Shown here: one piece after another, positions 22,826 to 45,093 of the stretch | How positions within the stretch are numbered: the stretch's first letter is position 1 | Layout: each line of letters begins with the position of its first letter | DNA from: Candidatus Omnitrophota bacterium | GTDB taxonomy: Bacteria > Omnitrophota > Gorgyraeia > Zapsychrales > Zapsychraceae | DNA: 61,569 nt | Reading direction: 5' to 3' | NCBI GenBank assembly: GCA_003528115.1 | Contig: DOGZ01000022.1 | Span: 24,397 to 85,965, forward strand | The notes under the pieces: generated by a model | Database searches by the model: none | What the model was told of the DNA's origin: nothing | Seen by the model: the letters and a program-made list of their open reading frames with translations, nothing else | Translations under genes and position numbers: made by a program

Positions 22826-22847
22826 TACACCTTCGGGAGGTGCGGTA

Positions 22848-23471: not shown

Positions 23472-23662
23472 GATTTCCTCTTCTATTTTTTAAAAAAATA
23501 ATCGTCAGCAAAAATTAACCATAGCAGTATTAGAAAATATGGATATAATGAGGCCATCCCAAGAATTTTTAGTCATGAAATCAAGATCTGTTTTCCTTCC
23601 CTTACGTCCGCCGAGAGGGGAGGACTTAGCAAGAAAGAGAAAATAGAACAATTTTATTCAGG

Positions 23663-28452: not shown

Positions 28453-29895
28453 ATGATGTCGAAAACACACGCGGAACCGTCCTATTCGAATTATCGATTA
28501 ACCGTGCGGCTTGAGCTGGAAAATCAGCCCGGGATTTTCGCCTCGGTAGTCAATTTGCTGGCGAAAGAGCGGGCGAATTTAGGAGCGGTGGATATCGTCC
28601 AGGTAACAAAGGATCACATGGTGCGGGACATTACTTTTGATGTGGATAATGAGGCCCATGGTCAACGGATTCTTGACGAATTTCGCAGTTTAAATAAAGT
28701 AAAAGTGATTTCCTTCTCCGATCCGATTTTTCTTATCCATCTGGGAGGAAAAATACGCGTTGAGAATAAAATCCCCATTCTTACCAGAAATCAACTTTCC
28801 ATGGCCTATACGCCCGGGGTTGCCAAAGTCTCCAAGGCCATAGCGGAAGATGTATCGAAAGTTTATACGTTGACTATCAAAGGGAATAGCGTCGCGGTCA
28901 TTAGTGATGGTTCCGCCATTCTGGGGCTCGGGAATTTGGGGCCGGAAGCCGCTTTGCCGGTCATGGAAGGTAAGGCGATGATTTTTAAGGAATTTGCCGG
29001 CATTGACGCGTGGCCTATTTGTTTGGCGACGCAGGAAACGGAAGACATTATCAAGACGGTTCAGCACATCGCCCCTGTTTTTGGCGGGATCAATTTGGAA
29101 GATATCAGCGCCCCGCGTTGTTTTGAAATTGAAGAGCGGCTTAAATCCATCCTCGACATACCGGTGATGCATGATGATCAGCATGGGACCGCCGTTGTGA
29201 TCTTGGCCGCGCTAAGAAATGCCTTAAAATTGGTCGGGAAAGATATTAAGGAAATTAAAGTTGTGGTGAGCGGACTGGGCGCCGCGGGCATTGCGTGTTG
29301 TAAGATCCTGTTAAACGCGGGGGTCGAGCATCTTTATGGCGCGAAGCGAAAAGGGGTCGTCTTGATCTGTAATGAAAAAAATATTCACGCCGCGCGAAAG
29401 GACATATTTTCTTGTATTAAACCGGAGGAGCCTTTTTTAACCTTACGTGAGGCCCTCATCGAGGCGGATGTGTTTATCGGCGTGTCTGCGGGAAACATCT
29501 TAACAGCGAAAGATGTTAAGCGCATGAATAAAGATAATATTGTTTTTGCCGTAGCCAATCCGGATCCGGAAATAGATCCTAAAGAGGCTATTAAAGTTTG
29601 CCGTATTTTTGCGACGGGCCGCTCGGATTTTCCTAACCAGATTAATAATGCCTTGGCATTTCCTGGGATTTTCCGAGGAGCCCTTAATGTCAGAGCTCGA
29701 CAAATCAACGAAGACATGAAGCTCGCGGCCGCGGCGGCCATCGCGGGTCTTATTCATGAGGACCAATTAAATGATGAGTATATTATTCCGAGTATTTTTG
29801 ATCAGCGTGTCGTTAAAGCGGTGTCTTCCGCTGTTGAGCTTGCCGCGCATAAGACCGGAGTTTCACGCAAGAAAATGAGAACGGAGAATTACTGA
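28453..29895 (+). CDS. NAD(P)-dependent malic enzyme with an N-terminal ACT domain
   Basis: LSMAYTPGVA, VISDGSAILGLGNLG, GINLEDI, Rossmann VVSGLGAAGIA. A ~75-aa ACT-like N-terminus. Confidence 0.9.
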   Translation: MMSKTHAEPSYSNYRLTVRLELENQPGIFASVVNLLAKERANLGAVDIVQVTKDHMVRDITFDVDNEAHGQRILDEFRSLNKVKVISFSDPIFLIHLGGKIRVENKIPILTRNQLSMAYTPGVAKVSKAIAEDVSKVYTLTIKGNSVAVISDGSAILGLGNLGPEAALPVMEGKAMIFKEFAGIDAWPICLATQETEDIIKTVQHIAPVFGGINLEDISAPRCFEIEERLKSILDIPVMHDDQHGTAVVILAALRNALKLVGKDIKEIKVVVSGLGAAGIACCKILLNAGVEHLYGAKRKGVVLICNEKNIHAARKDIFSCIKPEEPFLTLREALIEADVFIGVSAGNILTAKDVKRMNKDNIVFAVANPDPEIDPKEAIKVCRIFATGRSDFPNQINNALAFPGIFRGALNVRARQINEDMKLAAAAAIAGLIHEDQLNDEYIIPSIFDQRVVKAVSSAVELAAHKTGVSRKKMRTENY

Positions 29896-30000: not shown

Positions 30001-31686
30001 ATGGGGCGCCATAAACTTAAACCGAAATTGATAACAGTATTAAAAGAAGGATATTCGCTAAAAAAATTTGTTCCTGATTTAATTGCAGGAATTATTGTAG
30101 GGATTGTCGCGTTACCGTTAGCCATCGCTTTTGCCATTGCTTCCGGCGTTAAACCCGAACAGGGATTATATACGGCAGTTGTGGCAGGGTTTATTGTTTC
30201 TTGTTTAAGCGGCAGCCGTGTTCAAATCGGCGGGCCGACGGGCGCATTTATTGTCATCGTTTACGGTATCGTTTCAAAATATGGGTATGACGGTTTGGCG
30301 ACAGCAACTTTAATGGCTGGATTCTTGCTTATTTTGATGGGGATTGCGCGGTTCGGTGATATCATTAAATATATCCCTTATCCCGTGACAGTCGGGTTTA
30401 CCGGGGGAATAGCATTAATTATTTTGGCAGCGCAGATTCGGGATTTTCTAGGATTGACCGGAGGGGCTGTCCCAGCGGAATTTATTGAAAAGATCAAGTA
30501 TTATGCCGAACATATTAATACTTATAATTTTTACGCCGTCGGTATAGGTATTTTAACGCTGTTGATTATCGTTTATTGGCCCAAGGTCACGCGAAAAATT
30601 CCGGGGTCTTTTATTGCAATTATTTTTACGACGCTGCTCGTTAAAATATTTCATCTGCCGATTGAAACGATCGGCAGCCGTTTTGGAGGGGTCCCCAATA
30701 CGTTACCGATGCCGCATGTACCTAATATCAGCATAGATATTATAAAAAAATTAAGTTCACCGGCTCTAACGATTGCCATGTTGGCGGGTATCGAATCATT
30801 GCTTTCCGCTGTTGTTGCCGATGGCATGACAGGCAACCGCCATCGTTCCAACATGGAATTAATCGCCCAAGGAGTGGCCAATATTGCTTCCCCCGTTATG
30901 GGTGGAATCCCAGCGACTGGCGCAATTGCCAGAACAGCCACCAATGTTAAAAATGGCGGGCGAACACCGTTTGCGGGCATTATTCATGCGGTCACACTTT
31001 TACTTATTTTAATTTTTTTCGGACCATGGGCAGCTTTGATTCCGATGGCGGCTCTGGCCGGCATACTCATCAGTGTTGCTTATAATATGAGCGAATGGCA
31101 TTTATTTGTTAAAATATTTAGAAGTCCAATGAGTGATGTCATCGTTCTATTGACGACGTTTTTGTTGACAGTATTCGTTGATCTGACTGTCGCCATCAAA
31201 TTCGGTGTTGTGCTGGCGGCTTTTTTATTTATGAAAAGGATGTCCGAGGCAACGGAAGTCGGATACATCACAGATTCTTTAGTTGATCAAGAGATCGATG
31301 AAGAAGATATGGTTGATCAAAATCGAATATCACAAAAAGATATTCCCGATGAAGTTGAAGTATTTGAAATAGATGGGCCGTTTTTCTTTGGAGCAGCCGA
31401 TAAATTTAAAGATACGATTCGCAGTCTTGAGAAGAAGCCTAAAATTCTTATTCTTCGCATGCGGCATGTTCCAACGATTGATGCGACTGGAATAAGCGCT
31501 CTGGAAAATGTATTGAGTCTTTCCAAGCAAGATGGCACTCGAATTATTTTGTCGGGATTACAGGCAAGACCTTTAGAGAAAATGAAACGGGCCGGTTTAT
31601 TAAAGTATATCGAAGATGAAAATATTCAGTCGACCATTGATCAAACGTTCGATCGTGCACGACAGATACTTAAGGAGAACAAGTAA
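30001..31686 (+). CDS. SulP-family anion transporter with a C-terminal STAS domain
   Basis: Sulfate_transp-type TM core (GLYTAVVAGF, QIGGPTGAF, ATNVKNGGRTP) and STAS (ILILRMRHVPTIDATGISALE). Confidence 0.9.
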   Translation: MGRHKLKPKLITVLKEGYSLKKFVPDLIAGIIVGIVALPLAIAFAIASGVKPEQGLYTAVVAGFIVSCLSGSRVQIGGPTGAFIVIVYGIVSKYGYDGLATATLMAGFLLILMGIARFGDIIKYIPYPVTVGFTGGIALIILAAQIRDFLGLTGGAVPAEFIEKIKYYAEHINTYNFYAVGIGILTLLIIVYWPKVTRKIPGSFIAIIFTTLLVKIFHLPIETIGSRFGGVPNTLPMPHVPNISIDIIKKLSSPALTIAMLAGIESLLSAVVADGMTGNRHRSNMELIAQGVANIASPVMGGIPATGAIARTATNVKNGGRTPFAGIIHAVTLLLILIFFGPWAALIPMAALAGILISVAYNMSEWHLFVKIFRSPMSDVIVLLTTFLLTVFVDLTVAIKFGVVLAAFLFMKRMSEATEVGYITDSLVDQEIDEEDMVDQNRISQKDIPDEVEVFEIDGPFFFGAADKFKDTIRSLEKKPKILILRMRHVPTIDATGISALENVLSLSKQDGTRIILSGLQARPLEKMKRAGLLKYIEDENIQSTIDQTFDRARQILKENK

Positions 31687-31688
31687 CG

Positions 31689-32399
31689 ATGGAACTGACG
31701 ATTAACGATATCGTTAAGATTTTTGCGGTTCCGGAGGATACGGTTAACAATTGGATTGAAAAAAAAGATATGCCTTGTATCAAGGCGAATGAACAATATC
31801 GTTTTAATTATATTGAATTGCTTGATTGGGCTCTTCAGAAGAAAATCCAACTGACTCCCGAAGTATTGAGTTTGGGAGACCGCGAGAATTATGAGGTTAG
31901 TGTTTTATACCAAGCGATTAAAAACGGTCGTATTCATTATGATGTTCCCGGGGATAATCGGGAAGAAGTTTTGAAATCTATTGTTGATATATTGCCTCTT
32001 CCGTCTAAGTTAAATAGGAAATCTCTTTGGCAGATGTTGATTGCCCGAGAAAAAATGATGGCAACGGCTCTTGGCAATGGCATCGCTATTCCCCATGTAC
32101 GTAATCCAGTTGTTTTGAATATAGAGCAGCCTTCCATCTCTTTGTGTTTCTTGAAAAAAACCGTCGATTTTAAAGCAATTGACGGCAAACCGGTTTTTAT
32201 CCTCTTTATTCTCTTAAGCCCCTCCGTTAAAAGCCATTTAACTCTTCTAAGCCGGTTAGCTTATTGTTTGCAGAGTACAAAGCTCCAGGGATATTTGCAG
32301 GCAAAAGCGACACAAGAAGAAATTTTAGCTGAAATTAGGATTCTTGAATCAAAATTATCCTCCGTTCCTGATGAGAATGGGAAGAAAGGGGATCGATGA
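31689..32399 (+). CDS. HTH (excisionase/MerR-like) fused to a PTS EIIA type-2 (PtsN-like) domain
   Basis: N-terminal LTINDIVKIFAVPEDTVNNWIEKKDMP. EIIA motif ALGNGIAIPHVRNP with the phospho-His. Confidence 0.8.
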   Translation: MELTINDIVKIFAVPEDTVNNWIEKKDMPCIKANEQYRFNYIELLDWALQKKIQLTPEVLSLGDRENYEVSVLYQAIKNGRIHYDVPGDNREEVLKSIVDILPLPSKLNRKSLWQMLIAREKMMATALGNGIAIPHVRNPVVLNIEQPSISLCFLKKTVDFKAIDGKPVFILFILLSPSVKSHLTLLSRLAYCLQSTKLQGYLQAKATQEEILAEIRILESKLSSVPDENGKKGDR

Positions 32400-34375
32400 T
32401 GGACTTTTTTTTATACAGTCTGACTATTTTGTCTGTCTCCGGGGTTTTAATAATACTGACCACGCGATTTAGAAAAATGAGCGAAAGTATTTTCCTGATC
32501 TCGTTGATATTAGGATGCGGCTTGGGGTTCATTTCTGCCGTAACTATCCTTGCTAGTCGGACACCAATAGATTATCGGTTGAATTTTCGAATGCCTATCG
32601 GAGAGTTCTATATAGGTGTCGACCCCTTAAGTGCATTCTTTTTATTAGTGATTACCATTTTATTTTTTTTGGCTGGTTTATATGGGTACAGTTATTTGAA
32701 AGATCATGGGAAAAAGAATTTAAGTGTTCATTATGCTCTCTATCATTTGGCGTTAATTTCTTTGATGCTTGTGGTCACCGCCCAAAATGCTGTTTTATTT
32801 CTGATGGCTTGGGAGATGGTAACAGTCACGTCGTATTTTCTTATTGTATTTTATGACGAGAGGGAAGTTACGAGAAAAGCCGGATATCTTTTTTTGATAG
32901 CCGCGCATACTGGAACATTTTGTTTATGGGTGATGTTTCTTCTAATGGCGCGTCACACAGGGGCGATGAATTTTGATCAAATGATGTTAACACCATTTCC
33001 TTTACCACTTGCGGGCTTGCTTTTTGTTTTAGGAGTTATAGGTTTTGGTGTTAAAACGGGCTTTATTCCTCTTCATATATGGCTGCCCCACGCTCATCCG
33101 GCAGCTCCGAGTCATGTATCAGCAGTTTTGTCCGCCGTTATGATCAAGATGGGTGTTTATGGATTAATGAGAATCATTTTTATTATTAAAGATTTTCCGG
33201 AATGGTGTGCGGTTACGTTGCTTTTGATTGGAATGATCTCAGGAGTGGGGGGTGTTTTGTATGCGTTAGGTCAGCATGAAATCAAAAAATTACTCGCTTA
33301 TCACAGTATTGAAAATATCGGGATTATAACACTAGGTTTAGGAACGGGATTGTGGGGGCAGATTTATCATAATGAGTCTGTGATTCTTGTTGGTTATGCC
33401 GGCGCGCTTTTGCATGTTTTTAATCATGCCGTTTTTAAAGGGCTTTTATTTTTAAGCGCAGGATCAGTGATCCGATCGACGCATACGGGAGAGATTGACC
33501 ATCTAGGGGGACTTTTGAAACACCTTCCTTGGACAGGATGTTTATTTTTAATTGGTTCTTTATCGATCTGCGGGTTACCGCTCTTTAATGGTTTTGTCAG
33601 TGAGTGGCTTGTTTTCCGTGGATTGTTTGAAGGGATGTTTCAGTTTAAAATGAACGCGCTTATTTTTAACAGTTTGGGTATTATTTCATTGGCCTTGATC
33701 GGTGGTTTGGCCGCGGCGTGTTTTGCGAAAGCTTTTGGCGCGATATTTCTAGGGAATAGTCGATCGGTTGATTTTACTCATGTAAAAGAAAATTCTCCCA
33801 TCATGTGTGTTTCAATGTTTGTACTAGGAGGGATTTGCTTGTGGATTGGATTTTTTCCAACGCAAATGGTGTCTTTTGCCTTGGGGGCCGCTTCAACTAT
33901 TTCCAGCGCTCAGATTTCAACCACAATTGAGGAGGCAATTATTTTTCCTCTTTTAAAAGTAGTGTTAGTTCTGATTATTTTGATGACGATTGCCGTTGTC
34001 CTGATTTTATTTAAAAGGATCGCGATGAAATTTCTACCCATTGAAAATGCGCCGACATGGGGGTGCGGGTATTCTCTCCCAACGCGTCGCATGCAGTACA
34101 CGGCTTCATCATTTGCAGAACCGATTTTACGGATTTTTCGAAATGTCCTTGGGTTTAATGTTGAAGGGAATAAACCGAAAGGATATTTCCCTGATGAAGC
34201 GAAGATTTCTTCGCATGTCCTCGAAGCTTCCGAGGATATTTTGTTTCGTCCGATTTTTAAATTTATCGAGTTTTTATCGGTGAAATTTAAAATTATCCAA
34301 TATGGGTATACCCAGTTGTACTTGCTTTACATTTTTATTTTTCTTTTAGTTTTATTGGTTTGGAAAATGATTTAG
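32396..34375 (+). CDS. HyfB/HycC/NuoL-like antiporter-type membrane subunit
   Basis: Proton_antipo_M core GFGVKTGFIPLHIWLPHAHPAAPSHVSAVLSAVMIKMGVYG. 659 aa. ATGA overlap with the EIIA gene. Confidence 0.85.
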   Translation: MMDFFLYSLTILSVSGVLIILTTRFRKMSESIFLISLILGCGLGFISAVTILASRTPIDYRLNFRMPIGEFYIGVDPLSAFFLLVITILFFLAGLYGYSYLKDHGKKNLSVHYALYHLALISLMLVVTAQNAVLFLMAWEMVTVTSYFLIVFYDEREVTRKAGYLFLIAAHTGTFCLWVMFLLMARHTGAMNFDQMMLTPFPLPLAGLLFVLGVIGFGVKTGFIPLHIWLPHAHPAAPSHVSAVLSAVMIKMGVYGLMRIIFIIKDFPEWCAVTLLLIGMISGVGGVLYALGQHEIKKLLAYHSIENIGIITLGLGTGLWGQIYHNESVILVGYAGALLHVFNHAVFKGLLFLSAGSVIRSTHTGEIDHLGGLLKHLPWTGCLFLIGSLSICGLPLFNGFVSEWLVFRGLFEGMFQFKMNALIFNSLGIISLALIGGLAAACFAKAFGAIFLGNSRSVDFTHVKENSPIMCVSMFVLGGICLWIGFFPTQMVSFALGAASTISSAQISTTIEEAIIFPLLKVVLVLIILMTIAVVLILFKRIAMKFLPIENAPTWGCGYSLPTRRMQYTASSFAEPILRIFRNVLGFNVEGNKPKGYFPDEAKISSHVLEASEDILFRPIFKFIEFLSVKFKIIQYGYTQLYLLYIFIFLLVLLVWKMI

Positions 34376-34388: not shown

Positions 34389-35306
34389 ATGGGATTCCAA
34401 ATTTTATTGCACATAGGTATTGTGATTATTTTGTCCCCGTTGCTTTTGGGAATTATCGGAAAAACAAAAGCCTTTTTTGCTGGACGCTGGGGGGCGCCGT
34501 TGTTACAGCCCTATTACGATATCGGGAAATTATTAAGAAAGGGAAATGTTTATAGCACGACAACAACGTGGATTTTTCAGGCGGCACCCATTGTTTCTTT
34601 GGCCGCTGTTCTTGTTTCATCAATTTTGATACCGATGGGCGGCTTAAAAGCTCCGTTTTCATTTTGGGGAGATATTATTCTTTTCGCGGGGCTTTACGCT
34701 TTAGCTAGATTCTTTATTATTATCGCAGCCCTTGATACAGGATCAAGTTTCGAAGGAATGGGCGCGAGCCGAGAAGCAGCCTTTTCATGTTTAGCGGAAA
34801 TCGTATTATTCTTAGATTTTATTATCCTCGCATTGTTGTCTAAAAAACTTATCTTATCAGAAATGATTATGCGAAATATTTTATCTTGGGAGTTATTCGG
34901 GCCGGTGCTTCTTTTGGTCGTGGCGAGTTATTTCTTGGTTTTATTGACGGAGAATGCGCGCATTCCCATTGATGACCCGGCCACACACTTAGAACTAACG
35001 ATGATCCATGAGGTGATGGTGTTGGATCATAGCGGATGGGACTTGGCTTATATTTTATACGGGGCTGCGATTAAGTTGTTTGTTTTAGGAGCGCTACTTG
35101 TCAATATTTTAATTCCGTTTCATGGTTTGCCTGCCATTGTGCAGTTTATGGTTTTCTGGGGGGGCATGATTATATTGGCGATTGGCCTTGGAATTGTAGA
35201 ATCTTGTATGGCAAGATTACGGTTAAATCGTGTTCCGCAATTGCTCACAGGTGCTTTTGTTTTAGCTTTGGTCGGACTGTTGATTATTTTAGTCAAAGGG
35301 GTATGA
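34389..35306 (+). CDS. HyfC/HycD/NuoH-like membrane subunit
   Basis: GKTKAFFAGRWGAPLLQPYYDIGKLLRK matches the HycD/NuoH N-terminal signature. 305 aa, about 8 TM. Confidence 0.85.
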   Translation: MGFQILLHIGIVIILSPLLLGIIGKTKAFFAGRWGAPLLQPYYDIGKLLRKGNVYSTTTTWIFQAAPIVSLAAVLVSSILIPMGGLKAPFSFWGDIILFAGLYALARFFIIIAALDTGSSFEGMGASREAAFSCLAEIVLFLDFIILALLSKKLILSEMIMRNILSWELFGPVLLLVVASYFLVLLTENARIPIDDPATHLELTMIHEVMVLDHSGWDLAYILYGAAIKLFVLGALLVNILIPFHGLPAIVQFMVFWGGMIILAIGLGIVESCMARLRLNRVPQLLTGAFVLALVGLLIILVKGV

Positions 35307-35941
35307 CGCCAATGTGGTTGGAATCGGCATTAATTTTAATTATTCTTTTTGGGATCATTATTTTAGGGAATAATCGTCTTTCGACTATGATCCAGCTTCT
35401 TGCGCTGCAATCTCTGGTGTTGAGCATAACACCTTTGTTGATCCATCCAAGTATTCATGCGTTTACCATGACAATCGTAACAATTGTTCTAAAAGTTATC
35501 GTGATGCCGAGTTTGCTTTTTTGGGCGATCCGGCATGTTTCTATTCGACGTGAAGTCCAGCCTCTCATTGGTTACGGGAAGACTTTATTATTAGGCGGTT
35601 TTCTTATGGGAGTGGCATTTTTGATATCTTCAAAATTAGACTTGCCTGATAAAGGAATGTCGAATTTATTGGTTCCCACGGCTTTTTCTCTTGTGATGAT
35701 CGGATTTTTACTTTTAGTCACCCGGTTTAAAGCGATCACTCAGGTTATTGGTTATCTGGTCATGGAAAACGGCATTTTTCTATTTGCCCTTTTATTATTG
35801 GAAAAAACACCTCTCTTAGTCGAGATGGGAATATTTTTGGATATTTTTGTCGGTGTTCTGGTCATGGGGATTATTATTAATCACATCAACCAGGAATTTG
35901 GTAGCGCGAGTACGGTTAATTTAACCAATTTGAGAGACTAG
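35303..35941 (+). CDS. HyfE-like small membrane subunit
   Basis: 212 aa if started at ATG 35303 (ATGA overlap with the upstream stop), about 7 TM, the size of E. coli HyfE. The track ORF from 35204 overlaps the previous gene. Confidence 0.7.
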   Translation: MTPMWLESALILIILFGIIILGNNRLSTMIQLLALQSLVLSITPLLIHPSIHAFTMTIVTIVLKVIVMPSLLFWAIRHVSIRREVQPLIGYGKTLLLGGFLMGVAFLISSKLDLPDKGMSNLLVPTAFSLVMIGFLLLVTRFKAITQVIGYLVMENGIFLFALLLLEKTPLLVEMGIFLDIFVGVLVMGIIINHINQEFGSASTVNLTNLRD

Positions 35942-35946: not shown

Positions 35947-37371
35947 ATGGAGTTATTCTTATTATTAGAGCTGCCGTTGTTAATGGCCATGGTTGTTTTT
36001 CTTCCACAGAAAAATAGTTTAAGGAAAATTATTCTTCTGTTAACCAGTTCTATCCATGTGTTTGCAACGATCAGTCTTTGGCAGTATCCGCGGGCTGTTC
36101 GATTTAATTCTTTTTTAGGATTCGATGCCGTAAGCCAATTAGTTCTCAATTGTATCAGTCTCTTATTTTTTGTCGTTTCGATTTATCTGATAGGTTATCT
36201 TGATGAAAAGAAGCGTCGATCCAACAGGATTCTCATTAGCTGTCTGTTGGGGCTTCTGGCGAGCATGACGCTGGTTATGATGAGCCGGCATATGGGGCTT
36301 TTATGGATAGCCATTGCTTCGTCGACGTTATTAAGCGTCCCGTTAGTAAATTATTATCGTACCCCCAAAAGTATCGAGGCTACTTGGAAATATTTATTGA
36401 TTTCTTCGGTGGGCATTGCCTTAGGTTTACTCGGGACGCTTTTTTTGGCGATATCAGCGACGTCTATTAATACGATTTTCTTAGACGATATTTTAAATAA
36501 TGCGGCGTATCTTTCACCGTCGTGGTTAAAATTGAGCGTGATTTTTCTTTTGGTCGGGTATGGGACAAAAATGGGATTAGCCCCGATGCACACCTGGAAA
36601 CCCGACACGTACGGTGAAGCGCCATCACCCATCGGGGCGCTCATGTCCGGGGCCGTGACAGGGTGCGCTTTTCTGGCTGTCTTAAGAGTTTTTCAAATTT
36701 GTTTTTATGCGCATTTGAAGGAATTTGTTTCTCCAATATTGATTCTCTTGGGAATTTTATCTTTGGGGATAGCGGCGGTCTTTATCCTGGGACAGAAAGA
36801 TTTTAAACGGATGTTAGGCTATTCCAGTGTGGAGCATATGGGAATGTTGGTTTTGGCTCTGGGTTTAGGGGGAGGGGCGATTTGGGCCAGCTTATTTCAT
36901 ATGGTTAATAATACCTTTGCAAAAGGATTAATTTTTTTGGTATCAGGCAATCTGAACCAGATTTTCCGGAGCAGAAAAATTGAAAATATCCAAGGGGTCA
37001 TTCATCGGTTTCCCATCACTGGTGTCTGCTTGATTGTGGGATTGCTTGTGATCACCGGTTTCCCCCCCTTTGGGATTTTTTATAGCGAACTCTTAATTCT
37101 TAAAGAGGCGTTGATAACTCATCAGTACATGGTTGGGTTGTTTTATTTGCTATTTTTATCAGTGATTTTTTTTGGTTACGCAAGAATTATTTTAAGTATG
37201 GCTTTGGGCCAGCCAACAGAAGGCCATCATCAAAGGGTGAAGAAGGAAAATTTCTTTATGGTTGTGCCGTTAATTATTTTATTATTCATTTTATTTTTTG
37301 TCGGAATTTTGGTGCCCGATGCTTTTTATAATTTAATTAATGAAGCGATCGCGCTTTTAGGGGGAAAGTAA
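35947..37371 (+). CDS. HyfF/NuoN/NuoM-like antiporter-type membrane subunit
   Basis: GYGTKMGLAPMHTWKPDTYGEAPSPIGALMSG and MLGYSSVEHMG motifs. Confidence 0.85.
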   Translation: MELFLLLELPLLMAMVVFLPQKNSLRKIILLLTSSIHVFATISLWQYPRAVRFNSFLGFDAVSQLVLNCISLLFFVVSIYLIGYLDEKKRRSNRILISCLLGLLASMTLVMMSRHMGLLWIAIASSTLLSVPLVNYYRTPKSIEATWKYLLISSVGIALGLLGTLFLAISATSINTIFLDDILNNAAYLSPSWLKLSVIFLLVGYGTKMGLAPMHTWKPDTYGEAPSPIGALMSGAVTGCAFLAVLRVFQICFYAHLKEFVSPILILLGILSLGIAAVFILGQKDFKRMLGYSSVEHMGMLVLALGLGGGAIWASLFHMVNNTFAKGLIFLVSGNLNQIFRSRKIENIQGVIHRFPITGVCLIVGLLVITGFPPFGIFYSELLILKEALITHQYMVGLFYLLFLSVIFFGYARIILSMALGQPTEGHHQRVKKENFFMVVPLIILLFILFFVGILVPDAFYNLINEAIALLGGK

Positions 37372-37372: not shown

Positions 37373-38899
37373 GTGGAACAAAAAGAGTTTCATGCGCGCA
37401 ATGGACAGAGTTGGGAGTTAAATCAAATTCCTATTCTAGAAGAAAGTTCGTTCCGGCAGAAAATTTTGGAGGGATGTCATCACAATTTAAGACTTGTTAA
37501 TCTATATGCCCAACAGGATGAGAATAGGAATATCAAAGTTTTTGCGATACTCGGGAATGATCAAGAAGGAAGATTGACGGTTTTTGCCATGCAGATACCG
37601 CACGATCAAGCGTTGTTCCAATCATTGACATCTGAACTTCCCCAAGCCCATATGTTTGAAAGGGAAATGGCCGAGCAGTTTGCGATTGCACCCATAGGAC
37701 ATCCTTGGCTTAAGCCGGTGCGTTATCATCAGAATTATCGCAATGTCTCTGATCTGTGGCCGGAGGTTTCTTCAAAGTCTATCCCGGGAGTTTATCCTTT
37801 TTATCGTGTAAATGGTGAAGAAGTGCATGAAGTAGCTGTTGGACCTGTTCATGCGGGTATTATTGAACCCGGACATTTTCGTTTTCAATGTCATGGCGAA
37901 GAAATCTTAAATTTAGAAATTCAGTTGGGTTATCAGCATCGTGGTATCGAGAAAGTGATGGAAAATGTTTCAGTAGAAAGAGCTGTGCTTTTGGCTGAAT
38001 CAATTGCCGGAGACTCTGTCATCGGGCATGCGACGGCCTATTGCAATATTATTGAATCGTTAAGCGACTGTGAAATATCTCCTCGGGCGGAAGCGATTCG
38101 ATCAATCGCTCTTGAATTGGAACGGCTTTCCAATCATATCGGGGATTTAGGCGCTTTAAGCACAGATATAGGCTTTTTACCGCCGTCGGCATATTTCGGC
38201 CGGCTCCGGGGAGAATTTTTAAATTTATTGATGGAGTTAAGCGGCAACCGTTACGGACGAAGTTTGTGTCGTCCCGGCGGAGTTTTATTTGATTTGGATG
38301 AAGGAATGATTAAAAATTTTCGAGAACGGCTTTTGATCGCCCAAAGAGATTTAAAAGAAATATCGGATCTGTTTTTTTCAAAATCATCGGTTCTTTCACG
38401 TCTTGAAGGAACAGGAATAGTTTCAAAGAAGACGGCTAAAGAGCTAGGACTTGTCGGTCCGGTGGCCCGTGCTTCGGGGCTCGGCCTTGATGTCCGTAGC
38501 GATTATGCCTTTGGGATGTATCGTTTTAATTATATTCCTGTTTCCACAGTTCATTCGGGAGATGTGTACGCCCGGGCACTCATCCGCTGGCTCGAGTCTC
38601 AGCGGTCGATTGAATTTCTTTTAGATGTATTGAATCAGATTCCCGAGGGAGATTTACAAACAAAGGTTTCCGTATTGAAACCAAATCATATGGCTTTATC
38701 TATGATCGAAGGGTGGCGGGGAGAAATTGTCCACGTGGCGATGACGGATTCCAATTCCCGCGTTGTGCGTTATAAAATAAAAGATCCTTCTTTTAGTAAT
38801 TGGATGGGTCTTTCTATGGCGGTGCGTGGCGTGCAGATTTCCGATTTTCCGCTTTGCAATAAAAGTTTTAATTTGTCTTACGCTGGGCACGATCTTTAA
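37373..38899 (+). CDS. NuoC-NuoD / HycE-like 'large subunit' lacking all four [NiFe] cysteine ligands (Ehr-type)
   Basis: GPVHAGIIEPGHFRF, LEIQLGYQHRGIEK. The L1 site reads AGDSVIGH (38006-38029) and the L2 site NLSYAGHDL (38870-38896), in place of CGxCxxxH and DPCxxCxxR. Confidence 0.85.
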   Translation: MEQKEFHARNGQSWELNQIPILEESSFRQKILEGCHHNLRLVNLYAQQDENRNIKVFAILGNDQEGRLTVFAMQIPHDQALFQSLTSELPQAHMFEREMAEQFAIAPIGHPWLKPVRYHQNYRNVSDLWPEVSSKSIPGVYPFYRVNGEEVHEVAVGPVHAGIIEPGHFRFQCHGEEILNLEIQLGYQHRGIEKVMENVSVERAVLLAESIAGDSVIGHATAYCNIIESLSDCEISPRAEAIRSIALELERLSNHIGDLGALSTDIGFLPPSAYFGRLRGEFLNLLMELSGNRYGRSLCRPGGVLFDLDEGMIKNFRERLLIAQRDLKEISDLFFSKSSVLSRLEGTGIVSKKTAKELGLVGPVARASGLGLDVRSDYAFGMYRFNYIPVSTVHSGDVYARALIRWLESQRSIEFLLDVLNQIPEGDLQTKVSVLKPNHMALSMIEGWRGEIVHVAMTDSNSRVVRYKIKDPSFSNWMGLSMAVRGVQISDFPLCNKSFNLSYAGHDL

Positions 38900-38938: not shown

Positions 38939-39700
38939 ATGTGGGGTGTAATCGTCAATCGATTTAAACAGGGATTTAGGACATTGTCCTATCCTAAAGA
39001 AATCCCTTCTTTCCCGAAACGTTTTCGTGGCAGACCAATTATTCCAACCACAGAAACCCAATTTTTAATCGACAAAGAGAAAGACCCTTTAGGTGCGGTT
39101 GTGCTCGAAAAGAAACCTGCGATTGATATGGGGAAATGTTTGTTCAATGAAGATATGAAAACTGTTTGTTCAAAAGGGACTTTGATTTATTCTCAAGATC
39201 ATCGTATGGCTGTTTCAAAAAGGGAGGATTTGATTATTCAAGATGAGGTCAGGCTGGCCACCGCACTCAATGAAAAGACAAGAAGGATTTTCGGAAGATC
39301 ACTTAAATTGCGAGAGGTCTGTGCGGGGAGTTGTGGCGGTTGCGATGCCGAAATTCAGGCGATGGGGAATGTGGTTTTTGACTTATCGCGCTTTGGAATT
39401 CAATTTGTCGCTTCTCCTCGACATGCGGACGGCTTGATGATCACGGGTCCGGTCACAAAAAATATGGAATTGGCTTTAAGGAAAACTTATGAGGCTGTTC
39501 CCCAGTCTAAAATTGTCATTGCCGTTGGGGCCTGTGCCATCAGTGGGGGCCCGTTTCAAGGAGGGAAAGAGGTTCATAACGGCGTTGAGGAATTGATCCC
39601 AGTGGACTTGTATATTCCCGGATGCCCTCCGCATCCGTTGACCATTCTTGATGGGTTACTTCGTTTGCTTGGGAGATTGCAAAATGAAAAAAGAATATAA
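38939..39700 (+). CDS. NuoB/HycG-like small subunit retaining the [4Fe-4S] Cys ligands, with a ~115-aa N-terminal extension
   Basis: GSCGGCDAEI, GACAISGGPF and IPGCPPHP motifs. The N-terminal region (IDMGKCLFNEDMKTVCSKG) looks like a cysteine-depleted ferredoxin motif. Confidence 0.8.
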   Translation: MWGVIVNRFKQGFRTLSYPKEIPSFPKRFRGRPIIPTTETQFLIDKEKDPLGAVVLEKKPAIDMGKCLFNEDMKTVCSKGTLIYSQDHRMAVSKREDLIIQDEVRLATALNEKTRRIFGRSLKLREVCAGSCGGCDAEIQAMGNVVFDLSRFGIQFVASPRHADGLMITGPVTKNMELALRKTYEAVPQSKIVIAVGACAISGGPFQGGKEVHNGVEELIPVDLYIPGCPPHPLTILDGLLRLLGRLQNEKRI

Positions 39701-39920: not shown

Positions 39921-40979
39921 ATGCTTAATATCGGTGTTATAGGATTCGGCTACTGGGGGCCTAATGTCGTTCGCAATTTGACGGCTATCCGGGAGACGGC
40001 TGTTAAAATGATCTGCGACAGTCAACCGGTCATCTTAAAAGAGGCGCGGGAACTTTATCCCCACATCCGTGTGTGTCTGGATTATAAGGAAGTCGTGACC
40101 TCCCCGGACATCGACGCCGTGGCTATTGTCACTCCGGTATCCACCCATTATCAGCTTGCCAAACAGGCGTTGGAAAACGGCAAGCATATCTTTGTGGAAA
40201 AGCCGTTCACGCGTAGCATCGAAGAGGCCGAAGAACTGATCCGATTGGCCGAGAAAAATCATTTAAAGATCATGGTCGATCATACCTTTATCTTTACCGG
40301 CGCTGTCCGGAAGATCAAAGAGGTGATTGATAATAACACATTAGGCGATTTGTATTATTATGATTCCACGCGGGTGAGTTTAGGATTATACCAGCATGAC
40401 GTGAATGTCATCTGGGACCTGGCACCGCATGATTTCTCCATCATTGATTATGTCATTAAGAACAAGCCGTTGGCCTTGATCGCCCAGGGGGCGGACCACG
40501 TCGGCCGCGGTCAGGAAAATATCGCGTACATCACCTTGTATTACGATAAAAAACTCATCGTGCATATCAATGTCAATTGGCTCTCTCCAGTGAAGGTCAG
40601 GCATACCTTGATCGGCGGAAAGAAGAAGATGCTGGTCTGGGATGATTTGGAGGCCGATGAGAAGATCAAGATTTATGATAAGGGGTTCATCGTCGAGAAT
40701 AAAGAAGGGATTCATCATCTGCGCGTGGACTACCGCTCGGGCGATATGTGGTCCCCCCGGCTGGAGCATGAAGAGGCGTTAAAGCGGGAATTAAAGTATT
40801 TTGTCCATTGTATCGAAAACGATGAAACTCCCGTCAATGACGGTCAGGCCGGGCTCAGGGTCGTCAAGATGTTGACTCTCGCGGATCTTTCTTTGAAAAA
40901 CGGCGGGACGTTAATTAAACTGCAGAAGAATGTCGAAGATGAGCTCCTGGCGTCGGGAGCGGATAGAAATATTCCCTGA
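39921..40979 (+). CDS. Gfo/Idh/MocA-family sugar-nucleotide oxidoreductase (WbpB-like)
   Basis: MLNIGVIGFGYWGPNVVRNL Rossmann N-terminus, EKP motif (VEKPF); glycan-cluster context. Confidence 0.85.
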   Translation: MLNIGVIGFGYWGPNVVRNLTAIRETAVKMICDSQPVILKEARELYPHIRVCLDYKEVVTSPDIDAVAIVTPVSTHYQLAKQALENGKHIFVEKPFTRSIEEAEELIRLAEKNHLKIMVDHTFIFTGAVRKIKEVIDNNTLGDLYYYDSTRVSLGLYQHDVNVIWDLAPHDFSIIDYVIKNKPLALIAQGADHVGRGQENIAYITLYYDKKLIVHINVNWLSPVKVRHTLIGGKKKMLVWDDLEADEKIKIYDKGFIVENKEGIHHLRVDYRSGDMWSPRLEHEEALKRELKYFVHCIENDETPVNDGQAGLRVVKMLTLADLSLKNGGTLIKLQKNVEDELLASGADRNIP

Positions 40980-41005
40980 CCTCGTTGGAAAGGCTTCTTT
41001 AAGAA

Positions 41006-42010
41006 ATGAATTTTACGCACAACACCACCATTTTATTGACCGGCGGCGCGGGTTTTGTCGGCTCTCACGTGATCGATCAGCTTTTGCCTGAAGGGATCCG
41101 GGAGATTGTCGTCATCGACAATTTTGTCCGGGGCTCCAGGGAAAATATTCAGGGGCCTTTGGCCGGCGGACGTGTCCGACTGATGGAAGGGGACATCCGC
41201 GACCGGGATTTAATCGACGAAGCCTTTAAAGGCGTCGATTTTTGTTTTCATCTGGCGGCCTTGAGAATAACGCAATGCGCGGCTGAACCGCGGGAGGCCC
41301 TGGAGATTATGTATGACGGCACCTTCAATGTCCTGGAAGCGTGTGTGAAACATCACGTCAAGAAATTAGTCTTCGCCTCCTCAGCCTCCGTTTACGGCCA
41401 GGCGGTGGTCTTTCCGACCCGGGAAGAACATCACCCTTACGGAAATTATACGCTTTACGGCGCGGCCAAGATGGCCAATGAATTAATGTGCCGGTCCTTC
41501 AGTCATATGTATGGCCTCAAATTCAACGCCCTTCGGTATTTTAATATTTACGGTCCCCGCATGGACGCGTATGGAAAATATACCGAGGTCCTGATCCGCT
41601 GGTATCACGCGATCAGAGAGGGGAAGCCGCCTCTGATTTATGGCGACGGTCGGCAGACCATGGATTTTGTTTATATCGAGGAAATTGCCCGGGCGACCAT
41701 TTTGGCATTAAAGGCCGATGTCTGCGATGAGGCCTTCAATATCGCCGGCGGTGTCGAGACATCGCTGGAGGAACTGTGTTATTTGCTGCTGGAGGTGATG
41801 GCCTCAGATTTGAAACCGCGGTATGTCCCTTTGCCCGAAGACCGAAAGAAAGTGGAGGTTTGGCGGCGTCTGGCGGATACTTCCAAGGCCAAGGCCATGA
41901 TCGGGTTTGAAGCGAAGGTGGATTTGAAAGAAGGGCTGAGGCATTTGGTCCGATGGTTGGATAAAGAAGTCGGCCGCAAGGAAACGCGTGATTGTGTCGT
42001 TAAATACTGA
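41006..42010 (+). CDS. NAD-dependent sugar-nucleotide epimerase/dehydratase (SDR extended family)
   Basis: LLTGGAGFVGSH; catalytic YxxxK in YGAAK. Confidence 0.85.
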   Translation: MNFTHNTTILLTGGAGFVGSHVIDQLLPEGIREIVVIDNFVRGSRENIQGPLAGGRVRLMEGDIRDRDLIDEAFKGVDFCFHLAALRITQCAAEPREALEIMYDGTFNVLEACVKHHVKKLVFASSASVYGQAVVFPTREEHHPYGNYTLYGAAKMANELMCRSFSHMYGLKFNALRYFNIYGPRMDAYGKYTEVLIRWYHAIREGKPPLIYGDGRQTMDFVYIEEIARATILALKADVCDEAFNIAGGVETSLEELCYLLLEVMASDLKPRYVPLPEDRKKVEVWRRLADTSKAKAMIGFEAKVDLKEGLRHLVRWLDKEVGRKETRDCVVKY

Positions 42011-42136
42011 TTTCCGGAAAAGTAACGGAACTCTATGGTAGTATCTCTACCTGCGTTCTCTGAAGGATACGGTTTCATTAATTGTACGTAGGTCAATAAT
42101 TGATGAATTTTCTGATTTCCGAGGGGCCGGTCAAAT

Positions 42137-43390
42137 ATGATTCCCGTCGCTAAACCTAATTTAGGAGAAGAAGAGGCCGCTGCTATCCGCGAGGTGATTC
42201 TCTCGGGATGGATCGCCCAGGGGCCGAAGGTGAAAGCGTTCGAAGAGGCGTTCGCGGCTTATAGCGGGTGCCGGTACGCGTGCGCGGTCTCCAATTGCAC
42301 GACGGCTTTGCATCTCGCCCTTTTGGTTCTCGGCGTAAAGCCGGGCGACGTTGTCATCACGGTCAGCCATTCCTTCATCGCGACGGCCAACAGTATCCGT
42401 TACTGCGGGGCCGAACCTGTCTTTGTGGATATTGATCCCGCCACGTATAATATCTCCCCCGAAGGACTGGAAAGACTATTCAGAGAAGATTGTGAACTCA
42501 TCGACGGGAAATTGTTTTACAAACAGGCCCTCCGGCTCCTGACCGGCGAATCGCCGTTGCGGGCGTTGTCCAAGGATGCCGTACCTCGTCTGGGCCGTGT
42601 TGCGGCCGTCCTTATGGTTCATCAGATGGGGATGCCTTGTGACTTGGGGAGAGTTTTGCCTCTGGCCAGAGCGTGGAATCTTCCGGTTATTGAAGACGCG
42701 GCGTGCGCGATCGGAAGCGAGACCCGTTGGGAGGACGACGGACCTTGGGAGAAGATCGGGCGGCCGCACGGGGACTTGGCGTGTTTTTCTTTTCATCCGC
42801 GCAAGATTCTGACAACGGCCGAAGGCGGGATGATCACGACGAGTAATCCCGCATATGATCGCAAGCTGCGTCTCCTGCGTCACCAGGGAATGAGCGTCTC
42901 GGATTTGATCAGGCATCAGTCCCAAAGCGTTATTGTCGAAGAATATCCCGTGGTCGGGTATAACTACCGGCTGACGGATATTCAGGCCGCTCTGGGGTTG
43001 GCGCAATTAAAGAAATTGCCGCAGATGATCCTTAGGCGCAGAGACCTAGCCGCCGCGTATCAAAGAGAACTGCGCGGGATCGGCTGGGTTGAGTTGCCTC
43101 AGGAACCTCCTTACGCCAGGACGAATTGGCAGAGTTTTCCTGTGCGCGTGCGGGAAGACGCTCCCTTAAACCGCAATGAACTCATGCAGAGCCTTCTGGA
43201 TGCCGGCATTTCCACGAGGCCGGGGATTATGAATGCCCATCAGGAAGAGCCCTATCAACCGCAGCGCTGGCATTTGCCGCATTCCGAAAAGGCGCGGCAG
43301 GAGACAATCCTTCTTCCGCTTTTTGACGCGATGAACGAAGAGGATTTTTATAAAGTCATTCATCATCTGAAAGGATGTCTGGTGAAATGA
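42137..43390 (+). CDS. DegT/DnrJ/EryC1/StrS-family sugar aminotransferase
   Basis: MIPVAKPNLGEEE.., catalytic Lys context SFHPRKIL, YNYRLTDIQAALG. Confidence 0.85.
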   Translation: MIPVAKPNLGEEEAAAIREVILSGWIAQGPKVKAFEEAFAAYSGCRYACAVSNCTTALHLALLVLGVKPGDVVITVSHSFIATANSIRYCGAEPVFVDIDPATYNISPEGLERLFREDCELIDGKLFYKQALRLLTGESPLRALSKDAVPRLGRVAAVLMVHQMGMPCDLGRVLPLARAWNLPVIEDAACAIGSETRWEDDGPWEKIGRPHGDLACFSFHPRKILTTAEGGMITTSNPAYDRKLRLLRHQGMSVSDLIRHQSQSVIVEEYPVVGYNYRLTDIQAALGLAQLKKLPQMILRRRDLAAAYQRELRGIGWVELPQEPPYARTNWQSFPVRVREDAPLNRNELMQSLLDAGISTRPGIMNAHQEEPYQPQRWHLPHSEKARQETILLPLFDAMNEEDFYKVIHHLKGCLVK

Positions 43391-45093
43391 AACGGCGTAT
43401 TCTGGGTATCCAGGCCTTTTTCCCGGACTCATCCGCGTGCCTGGTGGAGGAGGGAAAGATCCTGTGCGCGGTTCAGGAGGAGAGGCTCACCCGTCACAAA
43501 CGGACGCGGGCCTTTCCGAACAAAGCCATTGAGTATTGTTTAAAGAAAACAAATACGTCTCTGGAAGAGATTGATACCGTCGCCTTTCCCGTCAATCCGG
43601 GGATTTATCTGGAACATTTTAATTCTCCACAGTCCGCCCAGCCAAGATACCGCGGCGAAATTTGGTACAGTGTCCTGAATCACCTCATGGCCCTGGCTCC
43701 GGAACCGTTGCGCGTGACGGACGCCGCGCAACACATCGGGTTCGCCGGCAATGGCAAGATGCATATCCAGTACGTCGATCATCATCTGGCCCACGCGGCG
43801 ATAGGATTTTATCCATCGGGTTTTCAAGAGGCCGCGATCCTTTCGGTGGACGGATTCGGCGAGAAAGATTGCGTTATGTTCGCCCGGGGCCGGGGGCAGC
43901 GCATTGAACCTTTCTTCCGGCAGGAGTTTCCGCATAGCTTGGGATGTTTTTATCTCACCATGACGGAGTTCCTGGGGTTTACCCCTAACAGCGATGAGTG
44001 GAAGGTGATGGGCGCGAGTTCGTACGGCCGTCCCGAGGTTTATTATGAGACGTTATTGTCCTTATTTAAATTTAAGGAAATGGGGTTTGAACTGGATTTG
44101 AATTATTTTAACTTTTATAATTTTCACCGGCCGTTGAATTATTCTTCCAAGCTTCTGGAGCTCATCGGTCCTGCCCGACGAAGCGGTGAAGAAATGACCC
44201 AACGGCATTTTGATATCGCCGCCGCCACCCAGAAAGTGGCGGAGACGGTTCTTTTCAGGCTTGCGGCCCAATTGTATGAAAAGGCAGGACTAGACAGATT
44301 ATGTTTTTCCGGCGGAGTGGCGATGAATTCTGTTTTAAACGGCAAGATTGTAACCCATTCTCCTTTTAAGGACGTGTATATCCCCTTTTCACCGGATGAC
44401 AGCGGGGGAAGCATCGGCGCCGCTCTTTACGTGGCGCATCATCTCAAAGGGATGCCGCGTCAAGAATGGACGCATAATTATCTGGGCCCCGCGTACGCGC
44501 AGGAAGAGATCCTCGGCGAGTTGAAAAAGTTTGGTCTCACGTATGAGGTTTCGCCGGATCCGGCTAAGGAGGCCGCCGAGGCGCTGTGCGCGGGCAAGAT
44601 CATCGGCTGGTTTCAAGGGGCGCTCGAATTCGGGGACAGGGCCCTGGGCAACCGGAGCATCCTGGCGGATCCCCGCAAGCCCGAGATGAAAGATGCCGTT
44701 AATATCAAGGTCAAATTCCGCGAAGAGTTCCGGCCTTTTGCCCCGTCGATTTTGGAAGAATGTTTGGAGGAATATTTTGAAGAAGCCAGGCCGACGCCTT
44801 TTATGGAGAAGGTCTTTACCGTTAAAGAAAATAAAAGGGAAGATATCCCTGCCGTGGTGCATGTGGATGGCTCGGGCCGGTTGCAGACGGTCAGTGAGAG
44901 GACGAATCCGCTCTACCATTCTCTAATCAAACATTTCCAGGCGTTGACCGGAATCCCGGTGGTTTTGAATACGAGCTTTAACGTGAAAGGCGAGCCGATG
45001 GTGTGCTCGGTGCAGGATGCCGTACGGACCTTTTACACCTGCGGCCTGCAGGTGTTGTTTCTAGGGAAGTATGTGGTGAAAAAGGGCGCATAA
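43387..45093 (+). CDS. NodU/CmcH-family carbamoyltransferase
   Basis: MKRRILGIQAFFPDSSACLVEEGKILCAVQEERLTRHK N-terminal signature. ATGA overlap with the DegT stop at 43387-43390. Confidence 0.9.
   Translation: MKRRILGIQAFFPDSSACLVEEGKILCAVQEERLTRHKRTRAFPNKAIEYCLKKTNTSLEEIDTVAFPVNPGIYLEHFNSPQSAQPRYRGEIWYSVLNHLMALAPEPLRVTDAAQHIGFAGNGKMHIQYVDHHLAHAAIGFYPSGFQEAAILSVDGFGEKDCVMFARGRGQRIEPFFRQEFPHSLGCFYLTMTEFLGFTPNSDEWKVMGASSYGRPEVYYETLLSLFKFKEMGFELDLNYFNFYNFHRPLNYSSKLLELIGPARRSGEEMTQRHFDIAAATQKVAETVLFRLAAQLYEKAGLDRLCFSGGVAMNSVLNGKIVTHSPFKDVYIPFSPDDSGGSIGAALYVAHHLKGMPRQEWTHNYLGPAYAQEEILGELKKFGLTYEVSPDPAKEAAEALCAGKIIGWFQGALEFGDRALGNRSILADPRKPEMKDAVNIKVKFREEFRPFAPSILEECLEEYFEEARPTPFMEKVFTVKENKREDIPAVVHVDGSGRLQTVSERTNPLYHSLIKHFQALTGIPVVLNTSFNVKGEPMVCSVQDAVRTFYTCGLQVLFLGKYVVKKGA

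Follow-up and report, generated by a model that had tools for sequence, protein, structure and literature searches.

Introduction

Relatives of the group 4 [NiFe]-hydrogenase large subunits that lack the cysteine ligands of the metal site belong to the Ehr (energy-converting hydrogenase related) complexes. The first description came from Geobacter, the complexes occur "in many microorganisms", and no function has been assigned to them (PMC3569383, PMC10284858, PMC6349859, PMC7894505). Phylogenetically they adjoin group 4f (PMC10284858). Here we analyse a 61,569-nucleotide stretch of DNA from a Candidatus Omnitrophota bacterium (GenBank assembly GCA_003528115.1, contig DOGZ01000022.1, positions 24,397 to 85,965), called the window below, in which the gene at 37373-38899 almost certainly encodes an Ehr large subunit, EhrL, and no hydrogenase. 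An initial annotation of this DNA had already called the protein a member of the Ehr complexes and had described these as having no assigned function, which agrees with the four papers cited above.

The Ehr family is thus already known, its function is a standing, niche open question, and the window's EhrL is an ordinary member of it. The naming dates to the mid-2000s and was first applied to GSU0739-45 of Geobacter sulfurreducens; a survey of Ehr complexes is reportedly given by Marreiros et al. in 2013.

Results

EhrL is built like a hydrogenase large subunit and lacks its ligands

EhrL consists of an N-terminal NuoC-like domain (Pfam Complex1_30kDa) followed by a NuoD/HycE-like domain (Complex1_49kDa), and its translation includes GPVHAGIIEPGHFRF and LEIQLGYQHRGIEK. 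When all PDB chains were searched with phmmer, the best match was E. coli HycE (7z0s_E, E 2.8e-50), ahead of P. furiosus MbhL (1.2e-44) and T. thermophilus Nqo4 (2.6e-39). An identity of the MBS/MBX type was set aside, as the L subunit of MBS (6u8y_L) scored far more weakly than HycE or MbhL, at 3.8e-26, and no Mrp-type small subunits are found in the cluster. An AlphaFold2 (AF2) model made from a 53-sequence alignment (pLDDT 74.6, pTM 0.77) was compared with known structures using Foldseek, and 7z0s_E again came first (E 3.2e-23), followed by E. coli NuoCD with a TM-score of about 0.65. The HycE/HyfG-type homology proposed in the initial annotation therefore holds by both sequence and fold.

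The former ligand positions were located in an L-INS-i alignment of EhrL with 190-odd relatives and E. coli HycE, HyfG and NuoCD. The C-terminal extension of HycE and HyfG was misplaced by plain MAFFT --auto; the L-INS-i result is concordant with the phmmer pairwise alignment to HycE, which sets 'CGICGFAH' on 'AGDSVIGH' and 'DPCYS' on 'NLSYA'. HycE C241, C244, C531 and C534, with their HyfG equivalents, fall on EhrL A212, S215, S502 and G505. Both motifs lie exactly where the initial annotation had put them (Table 1), and its reading that Cys is replaced by Ala, Ser, Ser and Gly is borne out by the two alignment methods. Since all four ligand columns are replaced, an NiFe(CO)(CN)2 centre is not possible, as had been argued, and EhrL cannot be a hydrogenase: the homologous fold and sequence are present, and both the L1 and the L2 ligand motifs are missing.

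The codons at the four former Cys positions are GCC, TCT, TCT and GGG. These represent four independent codon changes, two of which require at least two substitutions from TGY, and they are therefore no sequencing artefact. The possibility raised at the outset, that the motifs had been misregistered or that codons were in error, is ruled out by the alignments, by these codons and by the conservation of the replacement residues described below. In the L-INS-i alignment the last residue of EhrL, L508, is matched with HycE R537, and EhrL lacks a C-terminal extension of the kind that a maturation protease removes. We take R537 to be the mature C-terminus of HycE after cleavage by HycI, as 569 - 537 gives the known 32-residue peptide.

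It is conceivable in principle that EhrL works as a [NiFe]- or other metal-hydrogenase by means of non-Cys ligands, as the group 4 scaffold and the 'EPGHFRF' loop are kept, but we regard this as so improbable that it can practically be set aside. All four ligands are lost to Ala, Ser, Ser and Gly, the extension for protease maturation is missing, and the roughly 30 open reading frames (ORFs) of the window's 19.7-53.6 kb, scanned against Pfam, include no hyp or endopeptidase genes. We know of no precedent for Ni-Fe coordination without Cys thiolates.

The E. coli formate hydrogenlyase with HycE (PDB 7Z0S) and hydrogenase-4 with HyfG (HyfBCEF(G)I) are thus the nearest systems by sequence and fold. 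They have in common with the window's complex the NuoC-like N-terminal fusion, membrane subunits of the HyfB, C, E and F types, and, within the large subunit, the 'EPGHFR' loop together with many Arg, Glu and His residues. EhrL differs from HycE in having neither the four Ni-Fe Cys nor the peptide cleaved by HycI, and the complex differs from formate hydrogenlyase in that the HycF/HyfH-like part is fused to the small subunit, EhrS, and is cluster-less, while HycB/HyfA, FdhF and hyp genes are absent nearby.

EhrL is an orthologue of named Ehr proteins and lacks the quinone ligands of complex I

AMV73063.1, the named EhrL of Desulfuromonas sp. DDH964, is 50% identical to the window protein over 506 residues (E 6e-178) and has the same motifs. 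It was retrieved in a second homology search seeded from a Desulfuromonas locus (L034), followed by a cluster look-up. In a neighbour-joining tree rooted on NuoCD, which is a crude one, EhrL sits deep inside a Cys-less radiation with the Cys-bearing sequences basal to it. The features that define Ehr complexes are found together here, namely a Cys-less group 4-like large subunit, the gene cluster, orthology to the named Desulfuromonas EhrL and the proximal-cluster Cys of EhrS. As in the Geobacter/Desulfuromonas complexes, the Cys-less group 4-type large subunit is accompanied by a small subunit with [4Fe-4S] Cys, by two or three antiporter-like subunits and by NuoH-like and HyfE-like subunits, and a helix-turn-helix (HTH)/EIIA gene lies upstream in Desulfuromonas too. 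The differences are that the ferredoxin-like domain of the Omnitrophota EhrS is without both Cys motifs, which Desulfuromonas keeps, that there is one HyfB-like gene in the window and two in Desulfuromonas, and that the window cluster is preceded by SulP and malic enzyme genes.

Complex I resembles the Ehr complex in the fold of NuoD/Nqo4 (49 kDa), in having no Ni-Fe site and in carrying an N2-type cluster in the partner subunit, NuoB. However, EhrL is closer in sequence to HycE and MbhL, and the quinone ligands His38 and Tyr87 of Nqo4 (T. thermophilus numbering) align to EhrL Ile164 and Gly213 in both the phmmer alignment to 2fug_4 and the L-INS-i alignment. The input module is also missing, as NuoE, NuoF and NuoG are absent from the operon, from the scanned window neighbours and from related loci. 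As judged from these alignments, EhrL is unable to bind quinone in the manner of complex I.

The former Ni-Fe site is remodelled and conserved

The CCCC pattern of the four ligand columns is present in only 9-10 of 233 aligned relatives, the remainder having ATSG, SSSG, ASSG, STSG and similar combinations. The replacement motifs are common to about 180 homologues and are constant across phyla, reading [AS]-G-D-[ST]-x-[IV]-[GA]-H at the first site and S-F-[ND]-L-S-Y-[CAS]-G-x-D-L at the C-terminus. When 135 Cys-less representatives (below 60% mutual identity) were compared with Cys-bearing relatives, only two of the positions conserved at 93% or more differed between the sets: Asp214, which is Ile or Val in the hydrogenases, and Gly505, which is Cys.

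The nearest Cys-bearing group 4 hydrogenases in our set (P0183, P0205 and P0217) are about 36% identical to EhrL and also have no C-terminal extension. The flanks of their motifs are nearly identical to those of EhrL (KSFNLCYSCTDR against KSFNLSYAGHDL, and VGPIHAGIIEPGHFRF), but these proteins keep CxxC...CxxC, whereas EhrL has Asp214 between the former Cys positions, and Gly505.

The ratio of nonsynonymous to synonymous substitution rates (dN/dS) of EhrL is 0.06-0.11 against five relatives. More than 180 homologues, spread over many phyla, have an intact ORF of conserved length, and homologues number in the thousands; the EhrL query returned 1001 cluster representatives at E <= 1e-30, a set that includes Cys-bearing hydrogenases and complex I subunits, and there are very many Omnitrophota orthologues at 58-82% identity. 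Judged by its substitution pattern, the former Ni-Fe site is remodelled and under purifying selection, and is neither decaying nor an artefact. The idea that EhrL is a functionless relic, a pseudogenised hydrogenase or a product of assembly or sequencing error at the Cys codons draws its sole support from the loss of all catalytic ligands and relay clusters. It is highly improbable, and is effectively refuted by the conservation data: besides the low dN/dS and the intact, length-conserved ORF, the replacement residues are themselves conserved and the operon is tightly packed. Ehr subunits have moreover been detected as proteins in Geobacter proteomes (PMC7894505).

A six-gene core with a conserved membrane arm

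The Ehr complex is encoded by six contiguous genes, for HyfB-like, HyfC/NuoH-like, HyfE-like and HyfF-like membrane subunits, EhrL and EhrS. We surveyed such clusters by scanning one genome per species, which gave 78 loci (these and some further loci are numbered with the prefix L below). They span Omnitrophota, Desulfuromonadales, Myxococcota, Acidobacteriota, Planctomycetota, Verrucomicrobiota and Bacteroidota, as well as Ignavibacteria, Spirochaetota, Methylococcales, Gallionella and other groups. The six-gene core has the same order in all 78 loci and in independently called contigs. In the window the genes for a SulP transporter and an EIIA protein precede the core (Table 1), and from the spacing of the genes we predict that SulP, EIIA and ehr genes are one tightly packed, co-transcribed operon.

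The HyfB-like subunit of the window has all four of the charged residues that antiporter-like subunits conserve, the Glu of transmembrane helix (TM) 5, the Lys of TM7, the Lys of TM8 and the Glu of TM12, and these are kept in 60-63 of 63 HyfB-like subunits. The HyfF-like subunit keeps the TM7 Lys and the TM12 Glu. The HyfC-like subunit retains the charged residues common to HycD, HyfC and NuoH. Its TM5-6 loop (residues ~191-208) carries an Ehr-specific sequence, R-x-P-x-D-x-P-x-T-H-L-E-L-T-M-x-H-E, in which a loop His replaces the Glu, Gln or Tyr of HycD, HyfC and NuoH. In complex I and formate hydrogenlyase the TM5-6 loop faces the active-site cavity.

Table 1. Features of the ehr operon and its surroundings in the window (nt, nucleotides).
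Feature	Position	Strand	Remarks
HAMP + HD (HD_5) signalling protein	26999-28393	+	two genes upstream of SulP
Malic enzyme with N-terminal ACT domain	28453-29895	+	directly upstream of SulP
SulP anion transporter + STAS domain	30001-31686	+	2 nt before EIIA gene
HTH_17 + PTS_EIIA_2 protein (PtsN-like)	31689-32399	+	4-nt overlap with HyfB-like gene
HyfB/NuoL-like antiporter-like subunit (EhrA)	32396-34375	+	13 nt to next gene
HyfC/HycD/NuoH-like membrane subunit (EhrB)	34389-35306	+	4-nt overlap if next gene starts at 35303
HyfE-like membrane subunit (EhrC)	35303-35941	+	probable ATG start at 35303; 5 nt to next gene
HyfF/NuoN-like antiporter-like subunit (EhrD)	35947-37371	+	1 nt before EhrL
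EhrL, 508 residues, GTG start	37373-38899	+	Pfam Complex1_30kDa + Complex1_49kDa; HycE top PDB match
Former L1 motif A-G-D-S-V-I-G-H	38006-38029	+	residues 212-219; hydrogenase form C-G-x-C-x3-H
Former L2 motif N-L-S-Y-A-G-H-D-L	38870-38896	+	residues 500-508; hydrogenase form [DE][PL]CxxCx[DE][RL]
EhrL to EhrS spacing	37373-38899 to 38939-39700	+	39 nt
EhrS, HycF/NuoI-like + NuoB/HycG-like fusion	38939-39700	+	220 nt to next gene
Sugar-nucleotide modification block	39921-45093	+	after the 220-nt gap; unrelated to the operon

Some Omnitrophota loci have a second, complete set of membrane genes (HyfB-, HyfC-, HyfE- and HyfF-like) without L and S genes of its own. The second set follows EhrS in L010 (12143-17130), L014 (5773-10848) and L026 (12245-17215) and lies upstream in L013. 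The membrane arm thus seems able to undergo duplication on its own, without the hydrophilic cap. On plasmid 3 of the cultured Variovorax sp. PBL-E5 (NZ_LR594673.1, a megaplasmid; L081), two different Cys-less six-gene clusters are adjacent, at 6851-14135 and 17547-24731, with a universal stress protein gene between them; one of the small subunits is a fused protein annotated '4Fe-4S binding' and the other is plain NuoB-like. This strain is a possible experimental system.

The sugar-nucleotide block downstream of the operon encodes a GFO/IDH/MocA oxidoreductase, an NAD-dependent epimerase/dehydratase, a DegT-type aminotransferase and a carbamoyltransferase. Signalling genes flank clusters elsewhere as well as in the window, with a HAMP-guanylate cyclase and a HAMP histidine kinase next to the Ehr clusters of L083 and L087. 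A recurrent group of neighbours, 'c7', was rejected as non-specific, since it comprises generic response-regulator receiver domains.

Fe-S clusters are lost from EhrS to differing degrees

In the NuoB/HycG-like half of the window's EhrS, C132, C135, C199 and C229 align to the Cys that hold the proximal [4Fe-4S] cluster in HycG, MbhJ and NuoB. Residues 1-115 align to HycF/HyfH/NuoI, and here both CxxCxxCxxxCP motifs are destroyed: the first is wholly lost and the second retains its first and last Cys only (C67 and C77). Both motifs are intact in L029, L034, L041, L042 and L049. Across the family the small subunits fall into four classes. In many clades (for example Acidobacteriota, Desulfuromonas and Verrucomicrobia) the ferredoxin-like domain has 8-10 Cys and the proximal Cys are kept; in Omnitrophota, the window included, the domain has 0-3 Cys and the proximal Cys are kept; in a gamma/beta-proteobacterial clade the domain is absent and the proximal Cys are kept; and in a Bacteroidetes clade (L051-L056) the domain has about 4 Cys and the proximal Cys are lost (DCDN). 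Throughout all of these classes the large subunit keeps x-D-[ST]-H...S-Y-G-x-D.

In L051-L056 three or all four of the proximal Cys are gone from the small subunits (DCDN or SDDN), with the D-[ST]-H...S-Y-G-x-D signature of the large subunit unchanged.

In complex I and formate hydrogenlyase the proximal cluster is buried beneath NuoI/HycF, and a NuoI-like domain without clusters should therefore insulate the remaining cluster of EhrS.

These observations bear on whether the Ehr complex is a redox-driven ion pump. In that case electrons from reduced ferredoxin, or from a dehydrogenase docked to the complex (formate dehydrogenase, for instance), would travel through the EhrS [4Fe-4S] cluster to an acceptor in the remodelled EhrL pocket, and reduction of the acceptor would power the movement of ions, as it does in Ech, MBH, MBS and complex I. 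In favour of this, the window and most relatives have conserved proximal-cluster Cys, many clades keep the 2x[4Fe-4S] domain complete, and the nearest relatives are genuine Cys-bearing group 4 hydrogenases. Ehr subunits of Geobacter are more abundant on formate (PMC7894505), and a formate dehydrogenase-Ehr partnership has been hypothesised in print (PMC6349859). We nevertheless consider a redox-driven pump less likely than not for the complex described here, although only slightly less probable than the non-redox mechanism favoured in the Discussion. Both relay clusters are lost in the window lineage, and the proximal cluster is lost in one clade that keeps the signature of the large subunit. 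EhrL has no quinone ligands, and its pocket motifs, which are without Cys, offer only one conserved His, His219, to a redox cofactor. No dehydrogenase or other donor module recurs near the 78 loci. Genes for formate dehydrogenase, NuoEFG, hyp, CupA, DabA and carbonic anhydrase are neither recurrent there nor present among the Pfam-scanned ORFs of the window's 19.7-53.6 kb.

PtsN-like and SulP genes adjoin the cluster

The EIIA protein of the window matches PTS_EIIA_2 (Pfam E 3e-27), has PtsN proteins as its top PDB matches and contains His136, a predicted phosphorylation site, in the motif GNGIAIPH. A gene with the same HTH_17 + PTS_EIIA_2 architecture directly precedes the HyfB-like gene in 35 loci, which represent at least 8 phyla, and 36 of 36 EIIA neighbours share the predicted phosphosite motif G-x-G-[ILV]-A-[ILV]-P-H without exception. 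The upstream EIIA gene was confirmed by independent gene calls with precomputed Pfam assignments in a Chlamydiae-labelled metagenome-assembled genome, two Joint Genome Institute contigs and the cultured Desulfuromonas carbonis. The known targets that PtsN binds and regulates include K+ transporters, one of them the K+/H+ antiporter YcgO (PMC13104625), so that control of cation/proton transport by EIIA-Ntr has a precedent. By functional analogy with such PtsN-regulated cation transporters (TrkA, YcgO), the EIIA protein may act by direct binding.

In L087, from Desulfuromonas carbonis, the HTH/EIIA gene is separated from the first ehr gene by a gene at 2313-3056 whose product is a DUF1275 (YoaK-like) membrane protein. 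Several Omnitrophota loci, L010 (3868-4197), L017, L019, L021, L023 and L059, have a small ArsR-family HTH gene directly upstream of EIIA; in those of them that also have SulP, it sits between EIIA and SulP.

In 22 loci, that of the window among them, the cluster has a SulP gene, with or without STAS, beside it. Some of these loci belong to a proteobacterial clade whose large subunits are only 33-39% identical to EhrL and which have no EIIA gene. In L007, L008 and L036 a stand-alone STAS gene follows EhrS. The window SulP scores 536 bits against the C4-dicarboxylate transporter DauA and 287 bits against BicA, both below the cutoff.

The malic enzyme gene next to the window SulP (Table 1) has counterparts adjoining Omnitrophota-type clusters in L002, L006, L011, L015 and L024, where it is upstream, and in L026, where it is downstream on the opposite strand, six clusters altogether. 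Together with the DauA-like score, it gives a hint of C4-dicarboxylate uptake and decarboxylation.

Two Methylococcales-type loci have an F-type ATPase operon (L064, 9322-14947; L066, 14965-21381) at a distance of 3-3.5 kb on the downstream side of the SulP-Ehr genes. One gene of the operon is ATPase_gene1 (AtpQ-like), as in the N-ATPase arrangement, and such neighbours are consistent with an ion-homeostasis neighbourhood.

The SulP linkage could also be explained if the complex were an inorganic-carbon machine, a vectorial CO2 hydration/bicarbonate system coupled to the proton-motive force like the cyanobacterial NDH-1MS/CupA or like DAB, in which SulP would carry the bicarbonate. Among the 22 SulP-linked loci are those of autotrophs and methanotrophs (Gallionella, Methylococcales), the pocket residues Asp, Ser, Tyr and His are polar, and in A. 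caldus hyfBCEFG adjoins a beta-carbonic anhydrase gene while another cluster adjoins carbon-fixation genes (PMC3826726). This explanation is improbable, however, as no CupA, DabA or carbonic anhydrase gene recurs in the clusters, there is no conserved Zn-ligand pattern (His506 is variable), the window SulP is far better matched by DauA than by BicA, and the upstream neighbour in Omnitrophota is malic enzyme.

The degenerate ferredoxin domain of EhrS, the conserved replacement residues and the upstream PtsN-like and SulP genes go beyond what the initial annotation had described. In the full-text literature, in a scope that did not take in Marreiros et al. 2013, we found neither an Ehr-SulP link nor an Ehr-PtsN link, nor the graded Fe-S loss.

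Discussion

The evidence from the large subunit, the membrane arm and the neighbouring genes can be brought together in one explanation, an Ehr large subunit working in a regulated, non-hydrogenase ion-translocating module alongside SulP, and taken as a whole we hold this with belief and doubt in equal parts. The part of it that concerns the mechanism, which would be non-redox and linked to transport, is put forward only tentatively. In Omnitrophota the proximal [4Fe-4S] cluster of EhrS would be the only cofactor site left, the two relay clusters being gone and no donor being encoded nearby, and the complex therefore most likely passes no electrons from a donor to an acceptor. A module without electron transfer is favoured because the pocket of the large subunit and the membrane arm are invariant across the family, whereas the electron wire is variable.

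Under this non-redox mechanism, the complex would work as a proton- or cation-translocating machine, in line with the four charged residues of its HyfB-like and the two of its HyfF-like subunit. The former pocket, with the near-invariant Asp214 at its centre beside Ser/Thr215, Ser502 and Tyr503, would be a protonatable coupling site or a regulatory or gating site, and the single [4Fe-4S] cluster could be structural or a redox sensor. The HTH/PtsN-like EIIA protein would control the complex, which may in turn cooperate with SulP, for example by keeping up the pH balance, or the gradient of H+ or Na+/K+, on which uptake by SulP depends. There are possible functional analogies in Mrp, NDH-1MS/CupA and DAB, in which antiporter-like (PF00361) subunits of the same kind move ions without or beyond classical redox chemistry, although homologues of MrpE/F/G, CupA and DabA are absent from the Ehr cluster.

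Several points weigh against the regulated, non-redox module. The proximal [4Fe-4S] Cys are kept in 57-64 of 67 family members and the eight-Cys ferredoxin domain is kept in many clades, and because both are so widely kept at least the ancestral Ehr was probably a redox enzyme; published work, too, leans towards a redox partner, for instance formate dehydrogenase (PMC6349859, PMC7894505). In the membrane arm, the TM5 Glu of the window's HyfF-like subunit is replaced by Ala. The AF2 model of EhrL is unreliable just at the pocket, with pLDDT below 50 at residues 135-189, 372-396 and 475-508, which are pocket and interface segments. The HTH domain raises the possibility that EIIA acts as a transcription factor and nothing more. 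Many loci have no SulP, which is therefore an accessory and not an obligatory partner.

The Glu to Ala change at TM5 of the HyfF-like subunit is found in only 6 of 63 family members.

A more specific proposal, which we consider speculative and quite unlikely, is that this Ehr subfamily has abandoned redox chemistry altogether, with the hydrophilic cap, its Asp214 in the old Ni-Fe pocket and its Fe-S cluster single or absent, as a regulated proton gate, EIIA as the switch, and the membrane arm energising or balancing SulP uptake or cation homeostasis. If true, it would be the first complex-I-like assembly whose peripheral arm does no electron transfer.

Ehr complexes are widespread and sit at the evolutionary junction of group 4 hydrogenases and complex I. 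Their proteins often carry a wrong annotation, 'hydrogenase' or 'NADH-quinone oxidoreductase subunit C', which leads metagenome studies to infer inflated H2 metabolism, and the Omnitrophota organism from which this window comes should not be credited with a membrane-bound hydrogenase on the strength of it. For the function of the family there are now testable leads in the conserved PtsN-like partner gene, present too in cultivable Desulfuromonas, in the SulP linkage that recurs in two very divergent clades, and in a natural series of Fe-S losses beside an invariant Asp in the old active site.

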